Part shown: in pieces, positions 5,444 through 40,660 of the stretch
Numbering within the stretch: the first letter of the stretch is position 1
Layout: every line of letters begins with the position of its first letter
The notes under the pieces: generated by a model
What the model was told of the DNA's origin: nothing
Database searches by the model: none
What the model saw: the letters and a program-made list of their open reading frames with translations, nothing else
Position numbers and translations under genes: made by a program
NCBI GenBank assembly: GCA_903908245.1
Contig: CAIVRE010000033.1
Coordinates: forward strand, 18,172-82,171
DNA from: Candidatus Omnitrophota bacterium
GTDB lineage: Bacteria; Omnitrophota; Gorgyraeia; Zapsychrales; Fredricksoniimonadaceae
DNA: 64,000 nucleotides
Direction of reading: 5' to 3'

Positions 5444-6421
5444 TTAACTTTTAATAAGCCCTTTAACTTGCTCGCGCTCTTCGCTCAATTCCCGTAATGT
5501 AAGCGCGATCTTTTCTTTTGAAAAACTGTCCATCTTCAGGCCCTGGACCACCTGCCAGTCGCGACCGCTGGACCGCACCGGGAACCCGAACACCAGCCCC
5601 GCGGAAATATCGTAACTGCCGTCAGAGACCACTGCAACCGAAAAAAATTCTCCGTCGCGGGTTGGCGTGTTCAATGCCCGGACCGTCTCAATGACGGCAT
5701 TGGCCGCGGACGCCGCAGAGGATAATCCCCTCACTTTAATGATCTCGGCCCCGCGCTTTTGGACCGTTTCAATGAACCCGGTCTTAAGCCAAAGCCCGTC
5801 CGTGATAACCTCATTCGCCGGAAGGCCATTAATGCGCGCATTCAAAAAATCAGGGAACTGCGTCGCCGAATGATTGCCCCATATCCCCACACGGCTCACC
5901 GCGCTGTAATCCGTCCCCGCCTTCATCGCCAGCTGGGCTTTGGCCCGATTCTGGTCCAGCATGGTCATGGCAAAAAAATTGCGGGGATTTAAAGCCGGCG
6001 CGCACTCCTTGGCAATGAACGCGTTCGTATTGCAGGGATTGCCGACCACCAGCACCCGGCAGTCTTTTTTCGCAACCTTTGCAAGGGCGTTCCCTTGAGC
6101 CACAAAAACCCCGGCATTGACCTTCAAAAGGTCCGCACGCTCCATTCCCGCCTTGCGGGGAACACTGCCGATGAGCAGGGCCCAGTCGATATCCGTGAAC
6201 GCGTCCAGGGGATCCGTCGATGCCGATACTTTCCTTAACAAAGGGAACGCGCAGTCCTCCAGCTCCATCACGACCCCTCTGAGCGCTCCCATCGCAGGCT
6301 CCAGCTCCAGCAGGCTTAGCTCCACCGGCGTATCACGCCCGAACATCTCTCCCGACGCAATACGGAACAAAAGCGCATAACCGATCTGCCCTGCCGCGCC
6401 CGTCACAGCAACTTTTATCAT
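5444..6421 (-). CDS. mdh: Malate dehydrogenase (LDH-like MDH type).
   Basis: The protein reads [28 protein letters not shown]...[10 protein letters not shown]...IWGNHS. I chose the ATG at 6421 because it follows the RBS GGAAGG; the ORF caller's upstream extension (to 6601) overlaps the neighbouring gene. Confidence 0.85.
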
Positions 6422-7356: not shown

Positions 7357-7430
7357 GACCTCATCGTCTAGTCTGGTCAGGACGCGAGCTTTTCAAGCTT
7401 GCAACGCGGGTTCAAATCCCGCTGAGGTCG
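7357..7430 (+). tRNA. tRNA-Glu (anticodon UUC).
   Basis: Cloverleaf folded by hand. Acceptor GACCTCA/TGAGGTC; D-arm TCTAGTCTGGTCAGGAC; anticodon stem CGAGC/GCTTG with loop TTTTCAA (U33, anticodon TTC, A37); T-arm GCGGG-TTCAAAT-CCCGC; discriminator G. No CCA is encoded. Confidence 0.85.
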
Positions 7431-7585
7431 CTATATTTTTCCCCAAACTAACCCGCAGATTTGAACCCGCGTAACTAAATGCACTAAGTGTTCTAATGGC
7501 TGCTTCCATAAGATTATTCCAGACAAGCAGCCATTCCACGAGACTGCTATCTTACATTGGGCGAGTGAAATCCCGCTGAGGTCGC
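7431..7585 (+). mobile_element. tRNA-Glu 3'-end-linked miniature element. The left end is a 14-nt inverted copy of the tRNA T-arm, the centre is an 8-bp-stem hairpin, and the right end is an 18-nt perfect direct repeat of the tRNA 3' end.
   Basis: AAATCCCGCTGAGGTCGC occurs at 7414-7431 (inside the tRNA) and again at 7568-7585. GATTTGAACCCGCG at 7458-7471 is the reverse complement of tRNA positions 7405-7418. The internal hairpin is GGCTGCTT (7499-7506) paired with AAGCAGCC (7525-7532). Confidence 0.55.
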
Positions 7586-7595
7586 CATATATAAA

Positions 7596-7626
7596 AAGAC
7601 CCGGAATATGCTCCGGGTTTTTTATT
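7596..7626. terminator. Bidirectional rho-independent terminator, serving the tRNA-Glu/element transcript on the plus strand and gyrA on the minus strand.
   Basis: AAAAAG-ACCCGGA-atatgc-TCCGGGT-TTTTTTATT. The stem is flanked by an A-run on one side and a T-run on the other. Confidence 0.7.
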
Positions 7627-7796
7627 ATAAAAAAATCTCCTCAATTAAACCGTCTGAAAGAATTACATAGTTCGCCCTCGTCCTCCTTGCAGCGAGAGCG
7701 AGCCTGACGCCCGAGCGAAGGTCGGCCACGGCGGTCCGACCGAGCGTTCGGCAAAGGAACAATGACAGTCTTTAATAAAAGAATAGCCCTGAAACT

Positions 7797-10268
7797 TTAG
7801 GCCTCTTCCCCGCCCTCGTCCTCATCCTTCGCGATAACATTCGCGATCGACGACACCGTATCGTTCGCTTCCAGCGAAACAAGCCTGACGCCCATAGCGC
7901 TGCGGCCCGTTAAACGCACATCCTTTGGCATACAGCGGATAATAGCGCCCTGCTTGGTGACGGTCATGATCTCGTCATCTTCATGAACGGTCAAAACCCC
8001 AATAACCACGCCGTTCTTGTCGGCGCACTTGAAGTTAATGATCCCTTTGCCACCGCGCGACTGAATACGGTAATCCTCAAAATTCGACCGCTTCGCAAAA
8101 CCAAGAGATGAACATGTCAACAGCGTGTTCCCGGTCTTGCCAACATCCGGCGGGAATACGATCATCCCGACCACAATGTCATTTTTGGCCAAATTGATCC
8201 CGCGCACACCCATGGCCGAACGGCCGGTATCACGGATCTGGTCATCCAGGAACCGCAGGGACTGTCCCAGTTTCGTCGCCAGAAGGACATTCTGCTTCCC
8301 CTCAATGAGCGACACTCCGATCAGGTCGTCCCCTTTTTCCAGTGTGATCCCGATGATCCCGCCCTTGCGCGGATTACTGTAAGCCGACAACCGGGTCTTT
8401 TTAATGGTCCCCTTGGCTGTCGCCATGATAAGCGACTGTTCATCATTGAACTCCTTGACCGCAACAACCGCCCGGATGCTCTCGTCATTCGCGAACGACA
8501 ACAGGTTCACAATGGCCTTGCCCTTGGCCTGCCGCGAGGCAACAGGGATCTCGTAGACTTTAAGCCAGCGGACCATCCCCTTGTTGGAAAAGATCAGCAA
8601 ATAATCTTTGGACGAAGCCACAAAGAGGCGCTCCACAAAATCCTCTTCCTTGGTGGTCATGCCCATCACTCCCTTGCCGCCGCGCTTCTGTTTGCGGTAA
8701 GCATGCACCGGCGTACGTTTGATATAGCCGGTATTGGTGATCGTGATGGCCATGTCCTCGTCGGCGATCAGATCTTCCATCTCGATGTCTTCGGCCTTGC
8801 CGGCGATCTCGGTACGGCGCTCATCGCCGAATTTCAACCTCAGGTCCGCCAGCTCTTTTTTAATGATCGTATCCACTCTTTTCGGATCAGCCAGGATAGC
8901 GCGGTATTCATCGATCGCCTTAAGAAGGCCTTCATACTCCTCCTCGATCTTGTCGCGCTCGAGGCCTGTAAGCTTCTGCAGCTGCATTTCAAGGATAGCC
9001 TGCGCCTGGATCTCTGTCAGGCCGAACTTCTTGATCAGCGCCGTCTTCGCCTCGGGGGTTGACGGCGACTTGCGGATGACCGCAATGATCTCTTCAATAT
9101 TCTTAAGCGCAATGCGCAGCCCTTCGAGGATATGCGCACGGCGAAGAGCTTTGTCCAGGTCGAACTGCGTGCGGCGCCGCACCACGATACGCCGATGCTC
9201 GATATAATGCGCCATCAGTTGCTTTAAATTCAATACGCGCGGATTATTATTCACCAGTGCAAGATTAATAATGCCGAACGTGGTTTCCAGCTGTGTGTGT
9301 TTGAACAGATAATTCAGGACGATCTGCGCCTCAACATCCCGGCGCAATTCAATAACAACGCGAATACCGTCCTTGTCGGACTCGTCACGAATATCCGTAA
9401 TGCCGTCCACGCTCTTGTTCTGTACCAGGTCCGCAATATTCGCGACCAGATTGGCTTTATTGACCTGATACGGAAGCTCGGTAATAATGATGAAATCTTT
9501 GCCGTTCTTCTGCTGCTCAATGGCCGCACGTGCACGCAGGATGATCTTGCCGCGGCCGGTCGTATACGCGTCCTTGATCCCTTCCCGCCCGCAGATAATG
9601 CCCGCCGTCGGAAAATCCGGCCCTTTAACGAATTTGGTCAATTCCTTGATCTCACAGTCCGGATTTTCGATCAAATGAACGATCCCGTCCACGATCTCGT
9701 TCAAATTGTGCGGCGCCATGTTCGTCGCCATCCCGACCGCGATGCCGCTCGACCCGTTCACCAGCAGATTGGGCAATATCGCCGGCAGGATCACCGGTTC
9801 TTCCAGGGTGGAATCAAAATTCGGGGAATACTCCACGGTCCCTTTATCAATATCCGCGAGCACCGCTTCCGAAACGGCCGCCATCCTCGCCTCGGTATAA
9901 CGCATCGCCGCGGCTGAATCGCCGTCAATAGAGCCGAAGTTGCCCTGTCCGTCGATCAAAGGATACCGCAGCGAGAACTCCTGGACCATGCGCACCATCG
10001 TGTCATACACGGCAGAATCGCCGTGGGGATGATATTTACCCAACACTTCACCGACGATACGCGCGCTTTTCTTGTATGGCTTGCTGTGCTCGAGATGAAG
10101 CTCTTTCATCGCATAAAGGATGCGGCGGTGAACGGGCTTGAGCCCGTCGCGCACATCCGGCAGCGCGCGCCCGACAATAACGCTCATCGAGTACGCAAGA
10201 TAGGAACGCTTCATTTCCTCTTCAATAGGGACCGGAACGATCCGTTCTTTTTTTGTAAAATCTTTCAT
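7797..10268 (-). CDS. gyrA: DNA gyrase subunit A.
   Basis: 823 aa with the N-terminal GyrA signature ...[21 protein letters not shown]...[16 protein letters not shown]... and the C-terminal beta-pinwheel repeats. Confidence 0.95.
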
Positions 10269-10357
10269 GTTAATTCTTCCTTATTATTATCGGCTCGGGA
10301 CACATAGAATTTTCACCAACGTTTACGCTGGAAAATTCAATATGTCCCGCGCACTGC

Positions 10358-13074
<2,717 letters not shown>

Positions 13075-13078
13075 GCGA

Positions 13079-14167
13079 TTATAATCTCATAGGTAAAGCC
13101 AAATATAAATAATTTTCTTTACGAATTACACAGGGCTTGTCCGTTCCCAAAAATTCAATGTCGATCGATTCGTCATTGGTATTTTTAAGCACCTCGATCA
13201 TATATTGCGGATTGAACCCGATCACCATTTCCGGCCCGCTATGAACGATCTTGATCTCTTCGCGCGATTCTCCCACATCCGGTGTTGTTTTGGAAACGAT
13301 CAGCTTGTCCTGAAAAACCTCGAATTTGATCGCCTGAAAATCCGGCGTGGCCAGTAAATTGGCCCGGCGGATAGCCGCCAGGAATTCCTGTGTATTCAAA
13401 TTGATCTTGGGGGCTGTCATTTTCGGGATGACCTGTAAATAATTCGGAAAATCTCCTTCAATGATCCTGGTAGCGATCATGACCCCGTTAATATCGAACA
13501 ATACCTGATTGGCGCCCCCCACAAAGATCACTTCCCCGTCATCTTTTAAATTCCGGTTGATCTCGTTCACCGCCTTGATCGGCAAAATGACGGAAACGTC
13601 TTTAGTGACCGCCTGGATCAGCGGTTTTTCGATCTTGGCCAAACGCCTGCCATCTGTTGCCACCAGCCGGAGAATATCTTTTTGTACTTCCATTAAAACT
13701 CCGTTTAATACATACCGGGATTCCTCATGGGATACGGCAAATGATGTTAAACGGAACATTTCCTTGAGATCCGCCTGTTTAACACGGATGATCTCTTTAT
13801 CCTTGAATTCAGGGAATTTGGGGAATTCTTCTTTAGGCAATCCTAATAATTTGATCCGGCAATTTTTTCCTTCGATCTCGATCTGATTATTTTTACGTGC
13901 ATGAATAATAATATCTCCGGAAGGTAATTCACGGATCACCTCCGAAAATCTTTTGGCAGGGATCGTGATCGCTCCATCCGTAATAATATTGACCGGGATC
14001 TCGCAGGAAATACCAATATCAAGGTCTGTAGTATACAAACGTAAAGTATCTTTTTTTGTTTCCAGCAGCATATTGGATAAAATAGGCAATGTTGCTTTTG
14101 GAGAAACAACATTTTGAACGATCTGGATACCGCTTAACAGGTCATCTTTGGAAAGTTTCACTTGCAT
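13079..14167 (-). CDS. dnaN: DNA polymerase III beta sliding clamp.
   Basis: 362 aa, MQVKLSKDDLLSGIQIVQNVVSPKATLPILSNMLLE..., three-domain clamp architecture immediately downstream of dnaA. Confidence 0.9.
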   Translation of the reverse strand: MQVKLSKDDLLSGIQIVQNVVSPKATLPILSNMLLETKKDTLRLYTTDLDIGISCEIPVNIITDGAITIPAKRFSEVIRELPSGDIIIHARKNNQIEIEGKNCRIKLLGLPKEEFPKFPEFKDKEIIRVKQADLKEMFRLTSFAVSHEESRYVLNGVLMEVQKDILRLVATDGRRLAKIEKPLIQAVTKDVSVILPIKAVNEINRNLKDDGEVIFVGGANQVLFDINGVMIATRIIEGDFPNYLQVIPKMTAPKINLNTQEFLAAIRRANLLATPDFQAIKFEVFQDKLIVSKTTPDVGESREEIKIVHSGPEMVIGFNPQYMIEVLKNTNDESIDIEFLGTDKPCVIRKENYLYLALPMRL

Positions 14168-14230
14168 ACGTTAACACTCCCGGTTTACTTCTATTTTTAT
14201 ATAAAAAATCAGTAATAGTAACAGTAGGCC

Positions 14231-14239
14231 TGTGGATAA
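14231..14239 (-). promoter_or_regulatory. DnaA box (TTATCCACA, here on the minus strand) in the dnaA-dnaN intergenic region.
   Basis: TGTGGATAA at 14231-14239 is the exact consensus 9-mer. Confidence 0.55.
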
Positions 14240-14319
14240 TTCTAATAAAAACAAAAACAATTGTAAATACTGTACTTAGGGACAATTGGCTTGTTACTGG
14301 AACAATAGTATCCCGTGTA

Positions 14320-15663
14320 TTACTGGTTTAATATCTGGAACAACTTTTCTATACTATATTTAATTTCAGCAGAATTGTTAATATCTTCTTCGATTTTTTT
14401 ATAAGAATGCATAACTGTTGTGTGGTCTTTTCCAAAAGCGTTGCCGATCTCCGGCAATGAATGACGGGTCAATTTCCGGATCAGATACATGGCGATCTGC
14501 CTTGGAAGCGCGATGTTTTGGGTCCGTTTCTTGGATTTCAGGTCATTGATCGTGATCTTGTAGTGTTCGGCAACAACTTGCTGGATCATTTCAACGCTGA
14601 CGATCTTGATACTGCCCTGGATCATGTCTTTTAGAACGGTTTTGGCCAGGTTCAGGGAAACCGGCTTTTCCTCTAATAAGGAGCTGGCGACCACGCGGAT
14701 CATTGCGCCTTCCAGTTCTCGGATGTTGGTTTTGATCTGTTCCGCGATAAAATAAATAATATCATCGGGGACTTTGACTTTTTCCAGTTCGGTTTTTTTA
14801 CGCAGGATCGCGACCCGTGTTTCCAGGTCCGGCGGTTGAATGTCTGTTGTCAGCCCCCAGCAGAAGCGCGTGACAAGGCGGTCTTCGATCCCTGAAAGTT
14901 CTTTGGGCGGACGGTCGGAAGAAATAATGATCTGTTTATGGTTGTTATGGAGGTCATTGAACGTATGAAAGAATTCTTCCTGCATGGTCGGGCTTTTGGA
15001 AATGAACTGGATATCATCGATCAGAAGAACGTCGATATGACGGAATTTTTTCCGGAAGGCGCCGGTGGATTTGTTCTGAATGGCGCCGATCAGCTCGTTG
15101 GCGAATTGTTCGGATGAAACATAGGCACAGGTTTTATCGTTGGTTTCAAGGATGTAGTTGGCGATGGACTGCATCAGGTGGGTTTTTCCCAGCCCGGATT
15201 GTCCGTAGATAAAAAGGGGATTATAGGCTTTGGCCGGGTCATTGGCGACCGCCCGGCTGGCCGCGTAGGCCATGCGGTTGGAATTCCCGACGACAAAATT
15301 ATTGAAGGTAAAGCGTGGCTGCAGGTTCAGCGTTCTGGTCTTTTTGGCGGCGGCGTATTCAGGGGTGCTGGCCGTTGTTACGGCGGAAGGCCTCTCCCCT
15401 GCCGCGCAGAGCAGGTCTTTTCTTATGTGGATATCAACAACAATATTCCTGCCGGTTTCTTCACGCAACGCGGCGCCAATGATATCCAGGTAATGTTCGA
15501 CCATCCAGTTCTTGAAAAATTCGTCGGGCGTGATGAGGACAAGATGGTCCTGGGCCTGTTCCGCGATATTCAGGTGAACGAACCATGTTGTATAGGCATG
15601 GTCACCTATTTTTGTTTTGATCGAAGATTGGGCATTTTGCCATGCCTGGAGCAAGCTCGTCAT
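14320..15663 (-). CDS. dnaA: Chromosomal replication initiator DnaA.
   Basis: 447 aa with an AAA+ domain (GQSGLGKTHLMQSIANY Walker A, LLIDDIQF Walker B) and the C-terminal DNA-binding domain ...IAMYLIRKLTRHSLPEIGNAFG.KDHTTVMHS. Confidence 0.95.
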   Translation of the reverse strand: MTSLLQAWQNAQSSIKTKIGDHAYTTWFVHLNIAEQAQDHLVLITPDEFFKNWMVEHYLDIIGAALREETGRNIVVDIHIRKDLLCAAGERPSAVTTASTPEYAAAKKTRTLNLQPRFTFNNFVVGNSNRMAYAASRAVANDPAKAYNPLFIYGQSGLGKTHLMQSIANYILETNDKTCAYVSSEQFANELIGAIQNKSTGAFRKKFRHIDVLLIDDIQFISKSPTMQEEFFHTFNDLHNNHKQIIISSDRPPKELSGIEDRLVTRFCWGLTTDIQPPDLETRVAILRKKTELEKVKVPDDIIYFIAEQIKTNIRELEGAMIRVVASSLLEEKPVSLNLAKTVLKDMIQGSIKIVSVEMIQQVVAEHYKITINDLKSKKRTQNIALPRQIAMYLIRKLTRHSLPEIGNAFGKDHTTVMHSYKKIEEDINNSAEIKYSIEKLFQILNQ

Positions 15664-16000
15664 AGGGTCCGTCTGGGTGTGGAATACTGTAGAGATACAA
15701 ACTGTTTAAAACAAACAACTTAGGTCTTAGAGCAATTCTTCTTAACAGGTTATCCACAGCCAAGAGTTCTTATTATCATGTCCATCTTGTGCTGTATGAG
15801 GAGAATATCCGGCCTCCCCGAGAATGGTGGTCATTATAACAAAGCACTCTTTGAATGCAACTTTAATTTTTTTGGCGCTTTTCTTTTGACGGGTGTCAAG
15901 GCGGACTGGGCCTGTTTCCGGCCGCTAGAAAGCTGTCCTGTTTTTTCAGGCAAGGCCTCGTCGATTTTTTAAAAACTTTTAAGGTTGCGAAGCTTGCTTG
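15664..16000. promoter_or_regulatory. Probable oriC: the dnaA upstream region with a consensus DnaA box and an AT-rich unwinding element, at the point where gene orientation switches from minus to plus.
   Basis: TTATCCACA at 15749-15757. The AT-rich tract is ...CAACTTTAATTTTTTTGGCGCTTTTCTTTTGAC... Every gene to the left is on the minus strand and every gene to the right is on the plus strand. Confidence 0.6.
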
Positions 16001-16030
16001 ACTTCCCAAAAACCTATGTTATAATTTCCA
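16000..16030 (+). promoter_or_regulatory. Promoter of the rpmH operon.
   Basis: CTTGACT, 17 nt spacer, TATAAT, ending about 5 nt upstream of the rpmH RBS region. Confidence 0.55.
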
Positions 16031-16034
16031 AATT

Positions 16035-16172
16035 ATGAAAAAGACCTTAAAGACTCCTACAAAGATCAAGGGTAAAAAGATACACGGGTTTCGCAAGCGG
16101 ATGTCGACCGCTGACGGGCGTAAAGTCCTTCAGAGCCGTCGCGCCAAGGGCCGTAAACGTTTGACGAAGTGA
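16035..16172 (+). CDS. rpmH: 50S ribosomal protein L34.
   Basis: Hand translation gives [45 protein letters not shown], 45 aa. It is too short for the supplied ORF track. Confidence 0.9.
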
Positions 16173-16269
16173 CCCTTTGTTCGATCGGCGTATTAACATT
16201 GTTTTTTCATGTTGATAATTCCGGTCGGGCTGTTTGGCATTCGTTTAAATTAACAGGCTTTATTGGTGT

Positions 16270-16479
16270 ATGATGTGGATACTGACGCGGCTTATCTTTG
16301 TTTATCAAGGCGTAAGCCGTTTTTTTCTGCCTAAAGCCTGCCGTTTTCATCCTTCTTGTTCCCAGTATGCTGTTGAGGCGCTTCAAAAGCATGGGGTTAT
16401 TAAGGGGTTGTGGATGTCTATATGCCGCATTTGCCGTTGTTCACCGTTAACTAAAGGCGGGTATGATCCCGTAAGGTAG
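16270..16479 (+). CDS. yidD: Membrane protein insertion efficiency factor YidD.
   Basis: 69 aa ...[19 protein letters not shown]...G.DPV. Confidence 0.85.
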
Positions 16480-23334: not shown

Positions 23335-23412
23335 GGACCCGTAGCTCAGTTTGGTTAGAGCGCTTCCTTGACATGGAAGAGGTCACAAGTTCGAGTCTTG
23401 TCGGGTCCACCA
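23335..23412 (+). tRNA. tRNA-Val (anticodon GAC).
   Basis: Acceptor GGACCCG/CGGGTCC; anticodon stem CTTCC/GGAAG with loop TTGACAT; T-arm ACAAG-TTCGAGT-CTTGT; CCA is encoded. Confidence 0.85.
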
Positions 23413-23418
23413 TTTATA

Positions 23419-23451
23419 AAAAAGCCTTCCGGTTTTCGGAAGGCTTTTTTA
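23419..23451 (+). terminator. Rho-independent terminator after tRNA-Val.
   Basis: AAGCCTTCCG-gtttt-CGGAAGGCTT followed by TTTTTTATT. Confidence 0.8.
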
Positions 23452-23455
23452 TTGG

Positions 23456-23581
23456 CAGACTCGACAAGACGAGAACGGAGCCCCGCTGGACGCGACGAAT
23501 AGGAGCGTCCTATAGGCGGGGCGGATGGCCGACCCGGAAGGAGCGAAGCGACTGGAGGGCACCGAGTCTTGTCGGGTCCAC
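23456..23581 (+). mobile_element. tRNA-Val 3'-end-linked miniature element. The left end is an imperfect inverted copy of the tRNA 3' end, the middle is a conserved structured core of about 90 nt, and the right end is a 19-nt perfect direct repeat of the tRNA 3' end.
   Basis: CGAGTCTTGTCGGGTCCAC occurs at 23392-23410 (inside the tRNA) and at 23563-23581. The reverse complement of the left end (23456-23476) matches the tRNA 3' region at 16 of 21 positions. The core (GGAGCCCCGC...GACGAATAGGA...CCTATAGGCGGGGCGGATGGCCGACCCG.AAGGAGC...GACTGGAGGGC.CCGA) is shared with the element after tRNA-Gln. Confidence 0.6.
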
Positions 23582-23662
23582 TGGCGCCATCTGCATGTCC
23601 CCTTGTTTTCTTTCTTTTTATAGTAAATACTTAATAGGTTATATGGTGGATACCAACAGGGG

Positions 23663-26600
23663 ATGGGTGTGTTTAAAAGGGTGTTGAGTTCGATACTGAC
23701 CGCTGCGTTGATCTTGACAGCAATTCCTGTCAGGGCAGGGGAACTGTTGCTGCCGCTTCCCGGGGCGATGGTATCCTTGAGCCCTGCCTTTGTGCCGCCG
23801 CTGCTCAAAGGCGTTAAAGTGTATCCTGACGATCCGCTCCGTCTTGATTTTATTCTTGATCAGGGCGACGGCGCAGATGCGGCCGACACGGCCCGTCTTA
23901 TCAAGTATTTTCTTGCCTCCGTTACCGTTCCCGAGAATGATCTTTGGGTCAATCTTTCTCCGTATGAAAAAGACCGCATCATTCCCGATTCCTTTGGCGT
24001 GACGGAAATGGGCCGCGATCTTTTGAACCAGGATTACATGCTTAAGCAGATCACGGCTTCCGTGATCTATCCGGAAGGAGAGACGGGCAAGGCGTTCTGG
24101 TCCAGGGTTTATGCCGAAGCGCAAAAGCGGTTTGGAACGACGGACATTCCGGTCGACACCTTTAACAAGGTTTGGATCGTCCCCCAGAAGGCCGTGGTCT
24201 ACGAGAGTAAAGATTCAGCCTATGTCGTTGAGAGCCGGCTGAAGGTCATGTTAGACGCGGATTATTTGGCGTCGTCGAACAATGCGCTGCCGGGTGATGG
24301 CAAAGATGATATTGCCAGGCAAGTCCTTCGTGAAGTTGTCATTCCCATTCTCGAGAAAGAAGTTAATGAAGGAAGGAATTTCGCCCAGCTCCGGCAGGTT
24401 TATCATTCCTTGATCCTTGCCGTCTGGTACAAGGACGCGATCAAAGAAAGCCTTTTTGGCAAAGCCTATGTTGACCGGAAGAAGACCGGCGGGGTGGATA
24501 TTGAGGACAAGGCCGCAAAGGACAAGATCTGGGCGCAGTATGTGGAGGCCTTCAAGAAGGGTGCATACAATTATATCAAGGAAGAGGTCGATCCTGCGAC
24601 CGAGCAGGCTGTTCCCCGGAAATATTTTTCCGGAGGATTGAGATTGAATGTGAGCGCTGTCAAAGAATCCGCGCCTCGATCCCGTGTGCCCGAAGGCTTG
24701 AACCATGCGCAGGTCGTTAAAGTGGAGCTTGATGCGACAGGAAAGAGTGTCCTTGCGCAACGGATACCGCTTCTTTCCGCCGGTCGCGTGACCTATGGCC
24801 AGGGGGAATACACGGTCAGGCATACGGACCGCACGCAGACATTTAAAAGCTGGATGAGCCTGGCCCGTTCGCTTCTTCATGCATATGACAGTGAATTCAC
24901 GAAACTTTTAAAGAGGGATATCGAACCGGAAAACGCCGCCGGTATCCGTCGGATCATTGAGCTTCTGCGTGACGGGCTTGGGCGGGATATTGCCAGTATC
25001 CTTGAGATGCGGACCGGAGACATTCAAAGGCGTATTGATGTGATGCGCACGGCCGTTCAGGAAAACAAGCCGGAAATCTTTATGGACAGCGCGAATGGAC
25101 TTAACCAGTTGTCATGGGCCAAAGAGCCGGAGCTTGAGGGGGTATATGCCCAGCTTCATGAGGCGCTGAGGATCGCACGGGATGAGGGGATGGTCAAATC
25201 CGCGAACAAGATCTTTGAGGCATTGAATGAGGCGAGCCGAAGGCTTAAGCTTCAGGACGACCTGACAGTTCTTTTTAACCGCTATCAGCGGGCTTATGTA
25301 ATGGAGAGGGGGAGGGGCGGCAATATTCCTGACGATAAAGCGCGCGCCCTGGCGTTCGCCCTGGCGCTTAAGGCGGGGCGGTTCTCCAGCAGTGCCGATC
25401 AGAGTCCAAGGCTGACGCTCCTTTTTTATCAACTGGCATATGTTTCTGCGCGCGAGCATCCGGATTTTTTTAAAGCGCTCAATACACGTATTCATCACCG
25501 CGGGCTTGTGGAGCAGAAGAATGTCATGCAGGAAAGTTTACCGGGGCTTTTTGATCCGATCAAGCCGGCCGGGGTTTCGGTCCCAGCCGTTGTCGCCGAG
25601 GCATGGTCGCGCCTTGACGCTGCCCGGTCTGGAGCCCGCCTGCCGCTGGCCGTGGATACGGCCGGGAAGGCTGATCGCGCGGAGGCGGCCGTTGATCCTC
25701 AAGAGATCAATGATCCGCAGGCGGTCTCTGATTATATTGATCGACTGATCGCGGATATTAACAAGCAGCCGGGAGAGAAAGTATTCCGGGTGACGGTCAT
25801 GGCCGATCCGGGGAAATATGAAGGATCTTTTTACAAACCTCTTTATGATCTTTTCTTTGCAAAGTTGCTGGTTGATTTTGACGGGGCCGGGGACTTTGTC
25901 AGCCGTGCGCGCGCGACCTTGTCCGCAGGCGGAGTTCAAGCGTTGCGGACGGAGCTGGATGATCCTTCTGGCCTTTTGTTTTCATCCTTCCTGGGCATTA
26001 AGCCAAACGGCCGAACGCAAGGCGTTCCGTTCGACCTTTACAGCATCTTGCTTTTTTCCCTGACGGTCAATCTGGAGGGTTATCTCGGGCATCTCTATGA
26101 TGAAATGATCATTACCAGGCCGGAGATCGCGATCGCAAGAGAGGGTGTTTCGTATCATACCCGCGCGGAAAGCACCATTTTCCCGCGTGATAAAAAGATC
26201 CTGCGCGGCAGGACGAGGTCGGTTGAAAGGTATCAGTCGATCTATCGCGGTTATATGAGATCATCCAGGCTGGAAGATCAGCGCAGCTCAGAGCATGCCC
26301 GCAAGATCGAGGAGGGGATCGCCCTATGGAAGAAGAAAGCACAGGAACCGGGATATGAGCATCTTAAGCGGCGCAGCACCCGTTTCATGGAAGATACGGT
26401 GGTGGTGGAGTACGATTCGGACCTGCCGCTGATCATTGCGGATACTGAACGCAATGTGGCACGGGTCCTTCAAGTGGAACGGCAGGCGCACGCGTTCGTT
26501 TTTTCGAGCGCCTTTCTTGACAGCGCTTCTCCCGAAGAGATCGCGATCTGGCTTAATTTTGGGCAGGAGTGGCTGGATATTTATGGCAATATCTCGAGTA

Positions 26601-27718
26601 AAGAAGAGATCCAGGAGATGTATGAAGTGCTGGAAGAAGAGCGGGCAAAACTGAATGTGCATTTTTTTAGTATTGAAGACAGTCATTTGATGTCAACCGG
26701 AACGTTCAAGAAGCGCATTGCGGAGCTGATGCGGGCGCATGTGCTCAAGCGATCCCAGCATTTGATGAAACTGATCGCTTTTAATGAAGAAAAAGCCGAG
26801 GACGTCCTGCGGCGCGTCGGGGAGAAGATGAACGTGGACCCGTCCCGGCAACGGGATATGGATTTCGGATATCTGGTCAGGGGCGAGTTTCTTGAGGCGC
26901 TTGGCCTTCTGAGGGACCTTCTTAATATGTATGAAGCTGTCGGGATGCATGCGCATGCCGCAAAGATCTTTTATGAGATCGTTTATACAACGGCCGGCGT
27001 CCAGTTTTATGATCCGGGCGGGATACTTCCTCATTCCCTGCAGAACGACCTTGTTTTTATGGCATTGCGCCTGGGGCTGTGGGGTGATTTTTTAAACGAG
27101 CTTGATATTCTTTTTACGGCAAAGACGGATGTTGTGTTTTATGAAGGGACCAAAAGGCCGGATCCGCTCAAAAGCATCAAAAAAGAATTCCGGGATGGAT
27201 CGCCAAGGAACGGGTATCCGAGGCCCATGTATGAGGAGAATATTGCTCCCATGAAAATGCTGACGGATTCCATTATGCTTCGAAGGAAATTGAGGACCGT
27301 GATGGCGGCCCAGTTGTCGGCGACACCCGTGGAAAAACGTGACGAGGTGAAGGGGTATGTGGAAATGGCGGACATCATGATCAAAACATTTTTGCGTACC
27401 CGGTTCCGCAATGTGAAAGCTGAGGCGTTCCCCGGGGATGACCCTGTGCCAGGATCGGTGGCGGGAAACGATGACCGCGCGGAGACGGGCGGTATCGATC
27501 TGACCCGCGGCCGGATGGATATTGAGACCGGCCGTGAGGGGCAAAACGTCGAATTCCATTTCGATCCGGCCAATGCGGCGCAACGGGAACAATTGCAGAA
27601 CGCCACGGGTTTCACACCGGTCATTATTGACATTGCGCCCATGACAACGACAGTGCCCATGTTCCTTGGAATTTCCGACGGGTTGACCGCTTTCTCCGGC
27701 GGGTCACTCTCCGGCTGA
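23663..27718 (+). CDS. Large secreted hypothetical protein (1351 aa) with no recognisable catalytic motif. The ORF beginning at 63537 is a paralog.
   Basis: Single uninterrupted ORF with RBS ACAGGGG and an N-terminal signal peptide (MGVFKRVLSSILTAALILTAIPVRA). Its N-terminal region (LIKYFLASVTVPENDLWVNLSPYEKDRIIPDSFGVTEMGRDLLNQDYMLKQ) is closely mirrored by the ORF starting at 63537. Confidence 0.6.
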   Translation: MGVFKRVLSSILTAALILTAIPVRAGELLLPLPGAMVSLSPAFVPPLLKGVKVYPDDPLRLDFILDQGDGADAADTARLIKYFLASVTVPENDLWVNLSPYEKDRIIPDSFGVTEMGRDLLNQDYMLKQITASVIYPEGETGKAFWSRVYAEAQKRFGTTDIPVDTFNKVWIVPQKAVVYESKDSAYVVESRLKVMLDADYLASSNNALPGDGKDDIARQVLREVVIPILEKEVNEGRNFAQLRQVYHSLILAVWYKDAIKESLFGKAYVDRKKTGGVDIEDKAAKDKIWAQYVEAFKKGAYNYIKEEVDPATEQAVPRKYFSGGLRLNVSAVKESAPRSRVPEGLNHAQVVKVELDATGKSVLAQRIPLLSAGRVTYGQGEYTVRHTDRTQTFKSWMSLARSLLHAYDSEFTKLLKRDIEPENAAGIRRIIELLRDGLGRDIASILEMRTGDIQRRIDVMRTAVQENKPEIFMDSANGLNQLSWAKEPELEGVYAQLHEALRIARDEGMVKSANKIFEALNEASRRLKLQDDLTVLFNRYQRAYVMERGRGGNIPDDKARALAFALALKAGRFSSSADQSPRLTLLFYQLAYVSAREHPDFFKALNTRIHHRGLVEQKNVMQESLPGLFDPIKPAGVSVPAVVAEAWSRLDAARSGARLPLAVDTAGKADRAEAAVDPQEINDPQAVSDYIDRLIADINKQPGEKVFRVTVMADPGKYEGSFYKPLYDLFFAKLLVDFDGAGDFVSRARATLSAGGVQALRTELDDPSGLLFSSFLGIKPNGRTQGVPFDLYSILLFSLTVNLEGYLGHLYDEMIITRPEIAIAREGVSYHTRAESTIFPRDKKILRGRTRSVERYQSIYRGYMRSSRLEDQRSSEHARKIEEGIALWKKKAQEPGYEHLKRRSTRFMEDTVVVEYDSDLPLIIADTERNVARVLQVERQAHAFVFSSAFLDSASPEEIAIWLNFGQEWLDIYGNISSKEEIQEMYEVLEEERAKLNVHFFSIEDSHLMSTGTFKKRIAELMRAHVLKRSQHLMKLIAFNEEKAEDVLRRVGEKMNVDPSRQRDMDFGYLVRGEFLEALGLLRDLLNMYEAVGMHAHAAKIFYEIVYTTAGVQFYDPGGILPHSLQNDLVFMALRLGLWGDFLNELDILFTAKTDVVFYEGTKRPDPLKSIKKEFRDGSPRNGYPRPMYEENIAPMKMLTDSIMLRRKLRTVMAAQLSATPVEKRDEVKGYVEMADIMIKTFLRTRFRNVKAEAFPGDDPVPGSVAGNDDRAETGGIDLTRGRMDIETGREGQNVEFHFDPANAAQREQLQNATGFTPVIIDIAPMTTTVPMFLGISDGLTAFSGGSLSG

Positions 27719-33964: not shown

Positions 33965-34117
33965 ATAGACGATTTTTCTGCTGTGCTCGTCAGGGGGTTT
34001 GTAATATTGAACCAATACAATATTACAGGGGATCGTTGTCTATCTGGCTCGTGGGCCAATAGCTTTTCCCCACCTGTTAAGCAGGTTCGATACGCGGACT
34101 TCCAACGGCATAAGCGG

Positions 34118-34152
34118 AATTTGTTTAAACCCGTGTAGTTAATTCTACACGG
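34118..34152 (+). terminator. Rho-independent terminator about 200 nt downstream of pheT.
   Basis: AAACCCGTGTAG-ttaatt-CTACACGGGCTTTTT. Confidence 0.75.
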
Positions 34153-40358: not shown

Positions 40359-40413
40359 TTCTTGCAAAAACTGGCTTGTTTGTGTATAAATAGTGCCTTC
40401 CAAGTTGATATAT

Positions 40414-40484
40414 TGCCCTGTGGTGTAACGGTAGCACAATAGACTCTGGATCTGTTTGTCTAGGTTCGAATCCTAGCGGGGCAG
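40414..40484 (+). tRNA. tRNA-Gln (anticodon CUG).
   Basis: Acceptor TGCCCTG/CGGGGCA (U1-A72 as in bacterial tRNA-Gln, one G-U pair); anticodon stem ATAGA/TCTGT with loop CTCTGGA; T-arm CTAGG-TTCGAAT-CCTAG. A TTGCAA...TATAAAT promoter lies upstream. Confidence 0.8.
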
Positions 40485-40495
40485 GTAATTTGATG

Positions 40496-40525
40496 AAAAG
40501 CCCGACCTTATGGTCGGGCTTTTTC
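40496..40525 (+). terminator. Rho-independent terminator after tRNA-Gln.
   Basis: AAAAGCCCGACC-ttat-GGTCGGGCTTTTTCTTT. Confidence 0.8.
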
Positions 40526-40532
40526 TTTGGTA

Positions 40533-40660
40533 CCTGCCCCGCTAGGATTCGAAGGAGCCCCGCCGGGTCCGACGAATAGGAGGACCCTATAGGCGGGGCG
40601 GATGGCCGACCCGAAAGGAGCCCCGAAGGGCGACTGGAGGGCGCCGAACGCCTAGCGGGG
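40533..40660 (+). mobile_element. tRNA-Gln 3'-end-linked miniature element. The left end is a perfect 21-nt inverted copy of the tRNA 3' end, the middle is the conserved structured core, and the right end is a 10-nt direct copy of the tRNA 3' end followed by a T-run.
   Basis: CCTGCCCCGCTAGGATTCGAA (40533-40553) is the exact reverse complement of tRNA 40465-40485. The core (40554-40640) aligns with the tRNA-Val-linked core. CCTAGCGGGG at 40651-40660 equals tRNA 40472-40481, and the T-run is at 40664-40671. Confidence 0.6.

Follow-up and report, generated by a model that had tools for sequence, protein, structure and literature searches.

Downstream of a tRNA-Val gene in a 64-kb stretch of a Candidatus Omnitrophota contig (called the window below), we found a gene-less element in which a conserved, structured module of 90 nt is bounded by copies of the 3' end of the adjoining tRNA. 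The same module follows tRNA-Gln, and a third element, of the same layout and with an unrelated core, follows tRNA-Glu. The reading that we favor, at about even chances, is that of a non-autonomous integrative cassette with a prophage-like attachment-site (att) geometry that is mobilized in trans. We hold with equal confidence that such elements form a gene-less family of ~150–170 bp occupying the T-loop-to-3'-end attachment site of Omnitrophota tRNA genes. The evidence consists of the repeats around each core, the covarying fold of the module, its recurrence at different tRNA genes with arms that follow the local tRNA, and an empty site for the tRNA-Glu element. For the module shared by tRNA-Val and tRNA-Gln, we infer the T-loop geometry, the mobilization in trans and a putative single-stranded DNA intermediate by analogy.

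The tRNA-Val and tRNA-Gln elements

Coordinates are positions in the window, and L001–L029 are labels of comparison loci. A1 denotes the left direct repeat, A' the inverted arm, A2 the right direct repeat, and core1 the conserved 90-nt module. The parts at tRNA-Val are as follows:

23335–23412, + strand: tRNA-Val (GAC) with encoded CCA (ARAGORN; Rfam tRNA model, 70.8 bits)
23392–23410, + strand: A1, from C56 of the T-loop to the first C of CCA, within the functional tRNA (exact 19-mer present twice)
23418–23450, + strand: intrinsic terminator between tRNA-Val and A', with an A-run, an 8-bp GC stem, a GTTTT loop and a T-run (read directly)
23453–23475, + strand: A', imperfect reverse complement of the tRNA 3' end (sequence comparison)
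23477–23563, + strand: core1, 87 nt, GC-rich, three-way junction (covariance model, 108 bits; RNAalifold; pair counts)
23563–23581, + strand: A2, perfect 19-nt copy of the tRNA 3' end (exact 19-mer)

The sequence CGAGTCTTGTCGGGTCCAC was found exactly two times, inside tRNA-Val (23392–23410) and at 23563–23581, and an equal direct copy appeared in 0/200 shuffles. When A' (TGGCAGACTCGACAAGACGAG, 23453–23473) was compared with the reverse complement of the last 21 nt of tRNA-Val, 16 of 21 positions agreed, with TGG opposite CCA. The terminator (A-run, GCCTTCCG-GTTTT-CGGAAGGC, T-run) is the tip of a long palindrome made up of A1, the terminator and A'; a terminator consensus scan missed it, probably since the T-run was counted into the stem. 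A' also pairs with A2, and this pairing constitutes the closing helix P0 of the Val copy. A preliminary description of this DNA had reported the tRNA, the terminator, the 16/21 inverted arm and the perfect 19-nt direct copy, and all of these are present in the sequence. It had given the element a length of 126 bp, which is probably too short: under T-loop integration, with the replacement 3' end, the terminator, the inverted arm and the core counted, the unit would comprise ~170 bp.

The corresponding parts at tRNA-Gln are as follows:

40465–40487, + strand: A1, from T54 of tRNA-Gln (40413–40485) to 3 nt past the discriminator (tRNA call, repeat screen)
40496–40524, + strand: terminator between tRNA-Gln and A' (read directly)
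40531–40553, + strand: A', perfect 23-nt inverted copy of A1, including the trailer GTA (0/200 shuffles)
40554–40645, + strand: core1 (covariance model, 103 bits)
40645–40660, + strand: A2, decayed direct copy of the tRNA-Gln 3' end (CGAACGCCTAGCGGGG); GATG (4 nt), then eight T (sequence)

The Val and Gln cores have an exact 26-mer in common, for which the chance expectation is none, so the module that had been reported to recur at 40554 does so, spanning 40554–40645. The differences between the two cores are compensatory, as had also been claimed: the helix GGACGC/GCGTCC at tRNA-Val corresponds to GGGTCC/GGACCC at tRNA-Gln, and the hairpin GC-GAA-GC to GCCC-CGAA-GGGC, and the 11-nt loop GACGAATAGGA and the helix CCCCGC/GCGGGG are identical in both. 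Since A' of the Gln copy includes 3 nt of genomic trailer, it was copied from DNA or from a precursor and not from the mature, CCA-ended tRNA. The decayed direct repeat at tRNA-Gln scored 10 nt (4/200 shuffles).

Fold and distribution of core1

RNAalifold, combined with a structure checked by hand, folded core1 into a three-way junction. In the Val copy, the first arm consists of P1a (23480–23487 with 23515–23522) and P1b (23488–23493 with 23505–23510), with the invariant loop at 23494–23504 and a 4-nt bulge, TATA, at 23511–23514; P2 (23527–23563) has a base helix GG-CG/CG-CC, a CCC/GGG helix, purine-rich internal loops and the mini-hairpin GCGAAGC. P0, the pairing of the two arms, was seen in all complete core1 copies. 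Across the copies, P1 takes the form GCCCCGC/GCGGGGC around a variable 6-bp helix, its loop (GACGAAUAGGA) being invariant and its 3' strand carrying a UAUA bulge, and P2 ends in a small GAA or GAAA hairpin. The hairpin GCGAAGC, which is found in P2 of four core1 copies, is an unusually stable mini-hairpin as DNA, and we regard this as a lead only.

A covariance-model alignment of ten copies showed changes on both sides in 11 of the 25 pairs. The paired cells amounted to 98.3%, compared with 42–49% when the partners were slid, and 0/500 shuffles attained these values; the alignment was fitted to the model and favors structure, and the margin is large. Covariation beyond the first two copies, which had been proposed as a check, was thus found. 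In each of the six copies tested, wobble pairs gave the strand in tRNA sense an advantage in stability of 2.8–4.8 kcal/mol over its complement. These patterns indicate selection on the fold of the sense strand, which could serve as RNA or as single-stranded DNA alike. The preliminary description had invoked selection on RNA structure; the conserved single-strand fold stands, and the assignment to RNA specifically does not, as RNA and single-stranded DNA are not separated by the data.

An exact-pattern scan of one genome per prokaryotic species gave nine loci, of which five were true copies, all in Candidatus Omnitrophota metagenome-assembled genomes, and four were chance matches in coding DNA. 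A metagenome scan gave six true matches, representing five further copies (one of them divergent and short) and one identical to L005. In total there are 11 distinct copies (the two in the window and nine more, one of them seen twice), and in the collections searched all known copies are from Candidatus Omnitrophota; the best matches of the window proteins GltX, CoaC and GyrA are likewise in Omnitrophota. When ~300 kb of Omnitrophota DNA fetched for comparison was searched with the covariance model, neither additional nor degenerate core1 copies appeared. The short, divergent version (L016, 445–511; model score 19.5 bits) reads AACTCC-GACGAATAGGA-GGAGTT followed by TATAGGCC, and stands after a large palindromic terminator with no adjoining tRNA.

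Every core1 copy is oriented in tRNA sense. Six copies lie 15–50 nt after an intact tRNA (Val-GAC, Gln-CTG, Ser-GGA, Ser-TGA, Tyr and Val-TAC) and one follows a 3' fragment of tRNA-Asp beside an integrase remnant (L017). The module is found at no fewer than seven tRNA species, and its arms match the local tRNA. In the seven tRNA-linked copies, the left arm is the reverse complement of the local tRNA from G53/T54 outward (8–23 nt). Wherever the core is complete, which leaves aside the truncated Tyr copy and the Val-TAC copy interrupted by the end of its contig, the right arm repeats the tRNA in direct orientation, beginning at T55–A57 and reaching the discriminator or a little further. At L001, L011 and L013, the arms are tRNA-like and no cognate tRNA is adjacent, so that the expectation of a tRNA with matching arms at every match held for the six intact tRNAs and the tRNA-Asp fragment and failed at these three loci.

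Direct repeats of the tRNA 3' end were found downstream only at element-bearing tRNAs (20/20 in L005 and 21/23 in L002, each in 0/200 shuffles). The inverted arm fits the left copy with its trailer better than the right copy (23/23 including GTA at tRNA-Gln, 11/11 in L002), and a T-run or a terminator of the kind found behind native tRNAs often comes after the right repeat (L001, L002). Truncated copies lacking P2 and the right repeat were seen in L008 and L009. L005 has, 250 nt downstream from its complete copy, an isolated piece similar to the P1 hairpin (AGATGCGACGAATAGAAGTCCT; 6094–6118), probably what is left of a second, decayed unit.

In L011, two units with different cores and the same tRNA end stand in tandem. 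A primase-helicase and a small serine recombinase lie to their left, and a frameshifted tyrosine integrase and a toxin-antitoxin pair to their right. This part of L011 (3608–8346) is an integration hot spot: the primase-helicase-like protein has 775 aa and the serine recombinase 198 aa, the tyrosine integrase is decayed, and the toxin-antitoxin-like pair consists of two genes. In the window, the Val element is followed downstream by the gene of a 1351-aa protein without a Pfam domain (23663–27718), and a relative with 58% identity is encoded beside the L011 array (8491–10506), there on the opposite strand. In L017, an integrase remnant and a 48-nt tRNA-Asp fragment are followed by a terminator and then by the unit; this integrase carries a frameshift, and the other loci contain no relative of it.

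The tRNA-Glu element and loci without a core

The third element of the window, after tRNA-Glu (7357–7431), was flagged by a screen for inverted tRNA-end copies. Its core (core2) has 95 nt, is AT-richer and shows no similarity to core1. The following parts were assigned:

7414–7567, + strand: tRNA-Glu insert, 154 bp, composed of a replacement 3' end (7414–7436, CTA for CCA), a spacer, an inverted T-arm copy (7458–7472) and core2 (7473–7567) (repeat screens; empty site in L028)
7568–7629, + strand: displaced native tRNA-Glu 3' end (7568–7590, with CCA), native trailer and terminator (alignment to the uninterrupted L028)

The two copies of the 23-nt direct repeat (7414–7436 and 7568–7590) are identical at 22 of 23 positions (0/200 shuffles), and the inverted copy at 7458–7472 matches the 5' strand of the T-stem and the T-loop (7404–7418) at 15 of 15. 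In three relatives (L027–L029), core2 is absent and tRNA-Glu is uninterrupted, only ~65–70 nt from gyrA. In L028, whose GyrA is 88% identical to that of the window, tRNA-Glu runs directly into CCATATATAAAAA... and a terminator (letters CCATATATAAAAAAACCCAGG...CCTGGGTTTTTTATT). The tRNA-Glu 3' end and flank of L028 shared 60 of 81 columns with the right repeat and its flank in the window, compared with 49 of 83 with the left repeat and its flank. The empty site therefore matches the right-repeat flank, which places the 154-bp insert in the T-loop between C56 and A57. The insert supplies the present 3' end of the tRNA (CTA where the native gene has CCA), with the native end, trailer and terminator displaced rightward, and this geometry is that of the attL and attR sites of an integrase-mediated tRNA insertion, in an insert too small for a gene.

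The preliminary description had the core1 elements inserted precisely after tRNA genes. The link to tRNAs is correct; the position is probably inside the T-loop, as judged by the empty site at tRNA-Glu, from which the case of tRNA-Val was inferred. The direct repeat, described there as a target-site duplication, does behave as an integration-site duplication. Immediately to the left of the right repeat, core1 (GGGCGC) and core2 (GGGCGAGTG) both finish with GGGCG, a weak hint of a shared recombinase half-site. Core2 and the other core of the L011 tandem (coreX) were singletons among the sequences compared.

Orthologous loci without the core show that both core1 copies of the window are lineage-specific. 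The module is absent from the gltX-tRNA-Gln locus in L019 (GltX 89% identical) and in L020–L022, and from the coaC-tRNA-Cys-Leu-Val locus in L023 and L025, where the tRNA-Val is identical. For the Gln flank, the relatives were too diverged to inform on the native repeat, and an attR remnant sought in L019 upstream of the response-regulator gene was not found. In the window this gene directly follows the Gln element; in L019 it is separated from tRNA-Gln by ~9 kb (7868–16474) encoding Bro-N, 1917-aa and PQQ beta-propeller proteins. In L020, a large serine recombinase (11802–13469) adjoins tRNA-Gln.

The core-less relatives also contain palindromes made up of the tRNA 3' end and trailer, the terminator, and the inverted trailer and inverted tRNA end (each in 0/200 shuffles):

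L023, 10608–10720, 10821–10935 and 11258–11380: palindromes at tRNA-Cys, tRNA-Leu and tRNA-Val
L025, 10940–11040 and 11626–11740: palindromes at tRNA-Leu and tRNA-Val
L019, 7623–7700: palindrome at tRNA-Gln

The screen found none after tRNA-Cys in L025. Because these core-less terminators already sit in tRNA-end palindromes, part of the inverted arm of the elements may arise by template switching. Behind most of the palindromes are small hairpin repeats, their loops reading for example ATGCTCCGTCAT or CGTCC, and one such repeat in L023 stands between ATGGTG and CACCAT. Repeats of ~85–105 nt, in two to three copies (e.g. ...GTCCCGAAGGCTCCGGCAAGCCGTAGGCTTGCCAGGTA...), lie directly upstream of tRNA-Cys and tRNA-Val (L025, 10560–10760 and 11330–11545; L023, 11030–11175), each ending in a palindromic AAAATTT...AAATTTT box. 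At the same coaC-tRNA cluster, L025 has a run of N, and two of the four fetched contigs, from independent assemblies, end: L026 (at 10657) ~110 nt after coaC and before the first tRNA, and L024 (at 10700) ~50 nt after tRNA-Cys. This suggests that repeats at the cluster disrupt assembly.

Interpretation and comparison with known systems

In the mechanism that we propose, a unit would consist, in order, of a replacement tRNA 3' end from approximately C56, a short trailer, often with a terminator, A', and the 90-nt three-way-junction module. Site-specific recombination would join the tRNA-end copy of the cassette to the tRNA gene, so that the tRNA stays intact with the 3' end of the cassette and the native end is shifted rightward past the core, to appear there as the 19-nt direct repeat. 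At tRNA-Val, A2 would thus be the displaced, attR-like native end and A1 would be supplied by the element. The unit has no room for a gene and holds none; having no integrase of its own, it is non-autonomous if it is an integrative element, and the recombinase would act in trans. A' and the tRNA-end copy could pair across the compact core, and the attachment site would be used as a folded single strand that rebuilds the duplex target. With repeated integration, units would accumulate in tandem, the older ones ending up farther from the tRNA. Carried over to core1, the geometry of the tRNA-Glu insert would accommodate every locus. Units that have no tRNA close by can be explained by later insertions that pushed them off, as the L011 tandem shows directly, and the layout of L017 agrees with the traces expected of an island that later entered the same tRNA. 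For the Val element, the predicted circle junction joins the core end to CGAGTCTTG...CCACCATTTAT (...GGAGGGCAC to CGAGTCTTGTCGGGTCCACCATTTAT), and the empty site predicted under T-loop integration is tRNA-Val...GGGTCCAC followed by position 23582 onward.

The searches for a known identity were negative. Rfam 15 at gathering score gave only tRNAs and 6S RNA in the window, and with E values up to 10 the three element regions showed only terminator-driven noise overlaps; the 6S RNA gene (RF00013, 64.1 bits) lies at 33972–34124, between pheT and a rarA-like gene. No meaningful match was obtained by blastn in phage and plasmid collections, a scan of a viral contig collection with core1 and core2 patterns gave zero matches, and we found no description in the papers searched on Omnitrophota tRNA-linked RNAs, on the loop sequence or on folded attP sites at tRNA genes. 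The earlier statement that no named element fits agrees with this, no Rfam family or literature description having been found. No neighbor protein is conserved across the loci: near-element matches were spurious open reading frames over the element, and the rest were unrelated host genes.

Several candidates were tried and rejected. The elements are not miniature inverted-repeat transposable elements (MITEs), as their arms differ between copies and equal the local tRNA and the duplication is 16–23 nt. Retron non-coding RNAs have inverted arms too, but the neighbors here are housekeeping genes with no protein common to the loci. The bridge RNA of IS110 and the omega RNA of TnpB-IscB were discarded, as no such gene is near and the target-matching segments cover the same positions and pair together. 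A retroviral-type primer-binding site does not agree with the Gln arm, which copies genomic trailer and not CCA, or with the fact that most arms stop short of the tRNA 3' end. Had the core been inserted into a T-arm hairpin, the left arm would be the tRNA 5' side; it is instead the reverse complement of the 3' side (L008, GGCATGG; L017, ACTTGAA). Small ribozymes, group II domain V and motifs resembling the signal recognition particle RNA gave no model match, and a CsrA sponge (four GGAG motifs) would leave the arms unexplained.

Several observations weigh against the cassette. The window contains no integrase, transposase, reverse transcriptase, TnpB or HUH gene, and no recombinase gene is linked to any core1 copy, so that the cognate integrase whose presence had been proposed as a check did not turn up in either place; nor did we find an excised form or a full-length autonomous relative with core1. 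The number of copies is small. Within one genome, the spacers and terminators of the Val and Gln units are wholly different, which is odd for recently mobile copies. At tRNA-Val the flank comparison gives an ambiguous answer as to which repeat is native: the right repeat ends inside CCA, the left flank has the CCATTTA and terminator layout of the relatives, and the native-like TTTTCTTTC is not reached until 24 nt past the repeat. The inverted repeat of core2 matches the 5' half of the host T-arm, an inverted copy of its own tRNA end being absent, and a single folded-attP scheme thus fails to cover both families. The invariance of the loop sequences across hosts, and the co-transcription of L002, L005 and the Glu unit with their tRNAs, fit a function as RNA equally well.

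These last points lead to the main rival explanation, which we consider unlikely, if clearly less so than the other two: a resident family of small-RNA genes transcribed as tRNA trailers, in which a closing stem from the T-arm and acceptor mimics a tRNA minihelix with its 3' tail at the discriminator and either recruits RNase P, RNase Z or the CCA-adding enzyme or masks an extra 3' end, the arms co-evolving by function. It would account for loops that are invariant and helices that covary even between two copies of one genome, for G-U pairs that work only on the tRNA-sense strand, and for RNA-fold z-scores of -4.5 and -5.1. In L002, L005 and the Glu unit, no terminator separates the tRNA from the core, so that both are transcribed together; the right arm stops at the discriminator, and a U-run often comes next, as it would behind a tRNA gene; and two Val elements of different hosts have the same non-Watson-Crick GACGAGAA arm. 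In the Val, Gln, Tyr and Asp copies, however, a strong terminator immediately precedes the core, and promoter scans of the two window copies found none, which argues against efficient transcription. The absence of the core at orthologous tRNAs of close relatives, the lack of a cognate tRNA near L001 and L013, and the tandem units with one tRNA end in common also speak against a resident gene, as does the demonstrable insertion, at tRNA-Glu, of an unrelated core with the same flanks.

We consider it improbable that the arms are by-products of replication template switching at hairpins, where fold-back copying beside a tRNA terminator would extend the stems of a structured module, the terminator gaining an inverted tRNA end and the closing stem of the core gaining its complement. 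Template switching creates perfect stems (PMC8794818). Long tRNA-end palindromes persist at the tRNAs of the core-less relatives (L019, L023 and L025), and the ATGGTG and CACCAT that bound the L023 hairpin repeat are in line with such a process. It would not explain a right repeat that is longer and more exact than the inverted arm (20 nt compared with 12 nt in L005), the constant T-loop boundary, the native trailer and terminator after the right repeat at tRNA-Glu, or the tandem units, and the inverted arms of L008 and L002 stand apart from the terminator palindrome. Just as improbable in our judgment is that the elements are deletion remnants of integrase-bearing genomic islands, core1 being a conserved island end beside attR that is neither mobile nor functional. 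Integrase, recombinase or island genes do lie near some copies or loci (L011, L017, L019 and L020), L008 and L009 are truncated, and L005 has the additional P1-hairpin fragment. Independent deletions would not give at least eight copies at different tRNAs with identical core boundaries and the complete layout; purifying selection on the loops and compensatory changes in the helices argue for a maintained function, and the near-perfect repeats (19/19, 23/23, 22/23 and 15/15) argue for recent events.

A bolder form of the cassette interpretation, which we regard as unlikely, is that core1 and its arms constitute a self-contained, re-targetable attachment module. The sense and antisense tRNA-end copies would let the folded strand (DNA, or an RNA guide) image its target, a recombinase in trans would read the junction, and swapped arms would direct the module to any tRNA. 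If true, this would be a tRNA-directed analogue of the folded sites of phage CTX or of integron attC, with a programmable target, in a phylum without genetics.

If the favored reading of an integrative cassette holds, these are, to our knowledge, the smallest tRNA-integrating elements, and they would show what a minimal attachment site needs. The occurrence of one core at seven or more tRNA species raises the question of how target specificity switches. The elements also point to a recombinase, possibly one that acts on folded single strands, in the uncultured phylum Omnitrophota. The elements would replace encoded CCA ends (CCA to CTA at tRNA-Glu) and create pseudo tRNA 3' ends, which matters for the annotation of tRNAs and genomic islands in metagenome-assembled genomes. 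If they are instead tRNA-trailer RNAs, they represent a new class of structured RNA with 11 covarying pairs.

Compared with known systems, the feature is best classed as a new variant among tRNA-integrating elements. As in tRNA-borne islands and prophages and in cis-mobilizable elements (CIMEs), direct repeats of a tRNA 3' segment bound the insert and the crossover lies in the T-loop. In the Glu unit, as in islands and prophages, the tRNA is shown to be made functional by the upstream repeat, and its native end to have been displaced into the downstream one. Tandem accretion at one tRNA is shared with islands, and the lack of an own recombinase with CIMEs. The cassette differs from both in its size of ~150–170 bp, the absence of genes, the inverted target copy and the covarying 90-nt fold; in addition, classical integrases are tied to one tRNA, whereas core1 is spread over several.

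Small RNAs from tRNA trailers, such as 3'ETS-leuZ from a 3' external transcribed spacer, likewise lie immediately behind a tRNA and in its orientation, and some of the elements, too, are co-transcribed with the tRNA. The element differs by its covarying fold, tRNA-derived arms, variable presence and, in several copies, an intervening terminator. MITEs, repetitive extragenic palindromic sequences, Correia elements and Rickettsia palindromic elements are also short, gene-less, repeated in the genome, hairpin-forming and non-autonomous. Here, however, the inverted repeats are copied from the local tRNA, and the duplication is 16–23 nt compared with 2–10 bp; a conserved middle with variable ends is the reverse of a MITE.

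Integron attC sites resemble the cassette in that the stems covary and in that, as proposed here, the fold of one strand defines the site and the recombinase is encoded elsewhere. In attC, the primary sequence is poorly conserved, whereas the loops of the cassette are invariant, and attC flanks gene cassettes in arrays by intI without a copy of a target gene, whereas the cassette is found at tRNA genes. The active attP of phage CTX is a single strand folded from two inverted dif-like sites ~90 bp apart, and the integrated phage is accompanied by one functional copy of the target and two non-functional ones (PMC3089051). The cassette similarly has opposite target-like sequences ~90 nt apart, a stem that mimics the duplex target and no element-encoded recombinase, and leaves one functional copy plus one inverted and one direct non-functional copy at one end. 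It differs in that the target is the T-loop and 3' end of a tRNA and not dif, that the intervening 90 nt form a conserved three-way junction, and that the stem has no consistent central bubble; a single-stranded intermediate and a part played by Xer, which CTX and similar elements exploit, would be putative here, and core2 falls outside the scheme. The parallel between the inverted copy, the ~90-nt fold and the direct copy on the one hand and the CTX attP on the other suggests that the cassette recombines as a folded single strand.

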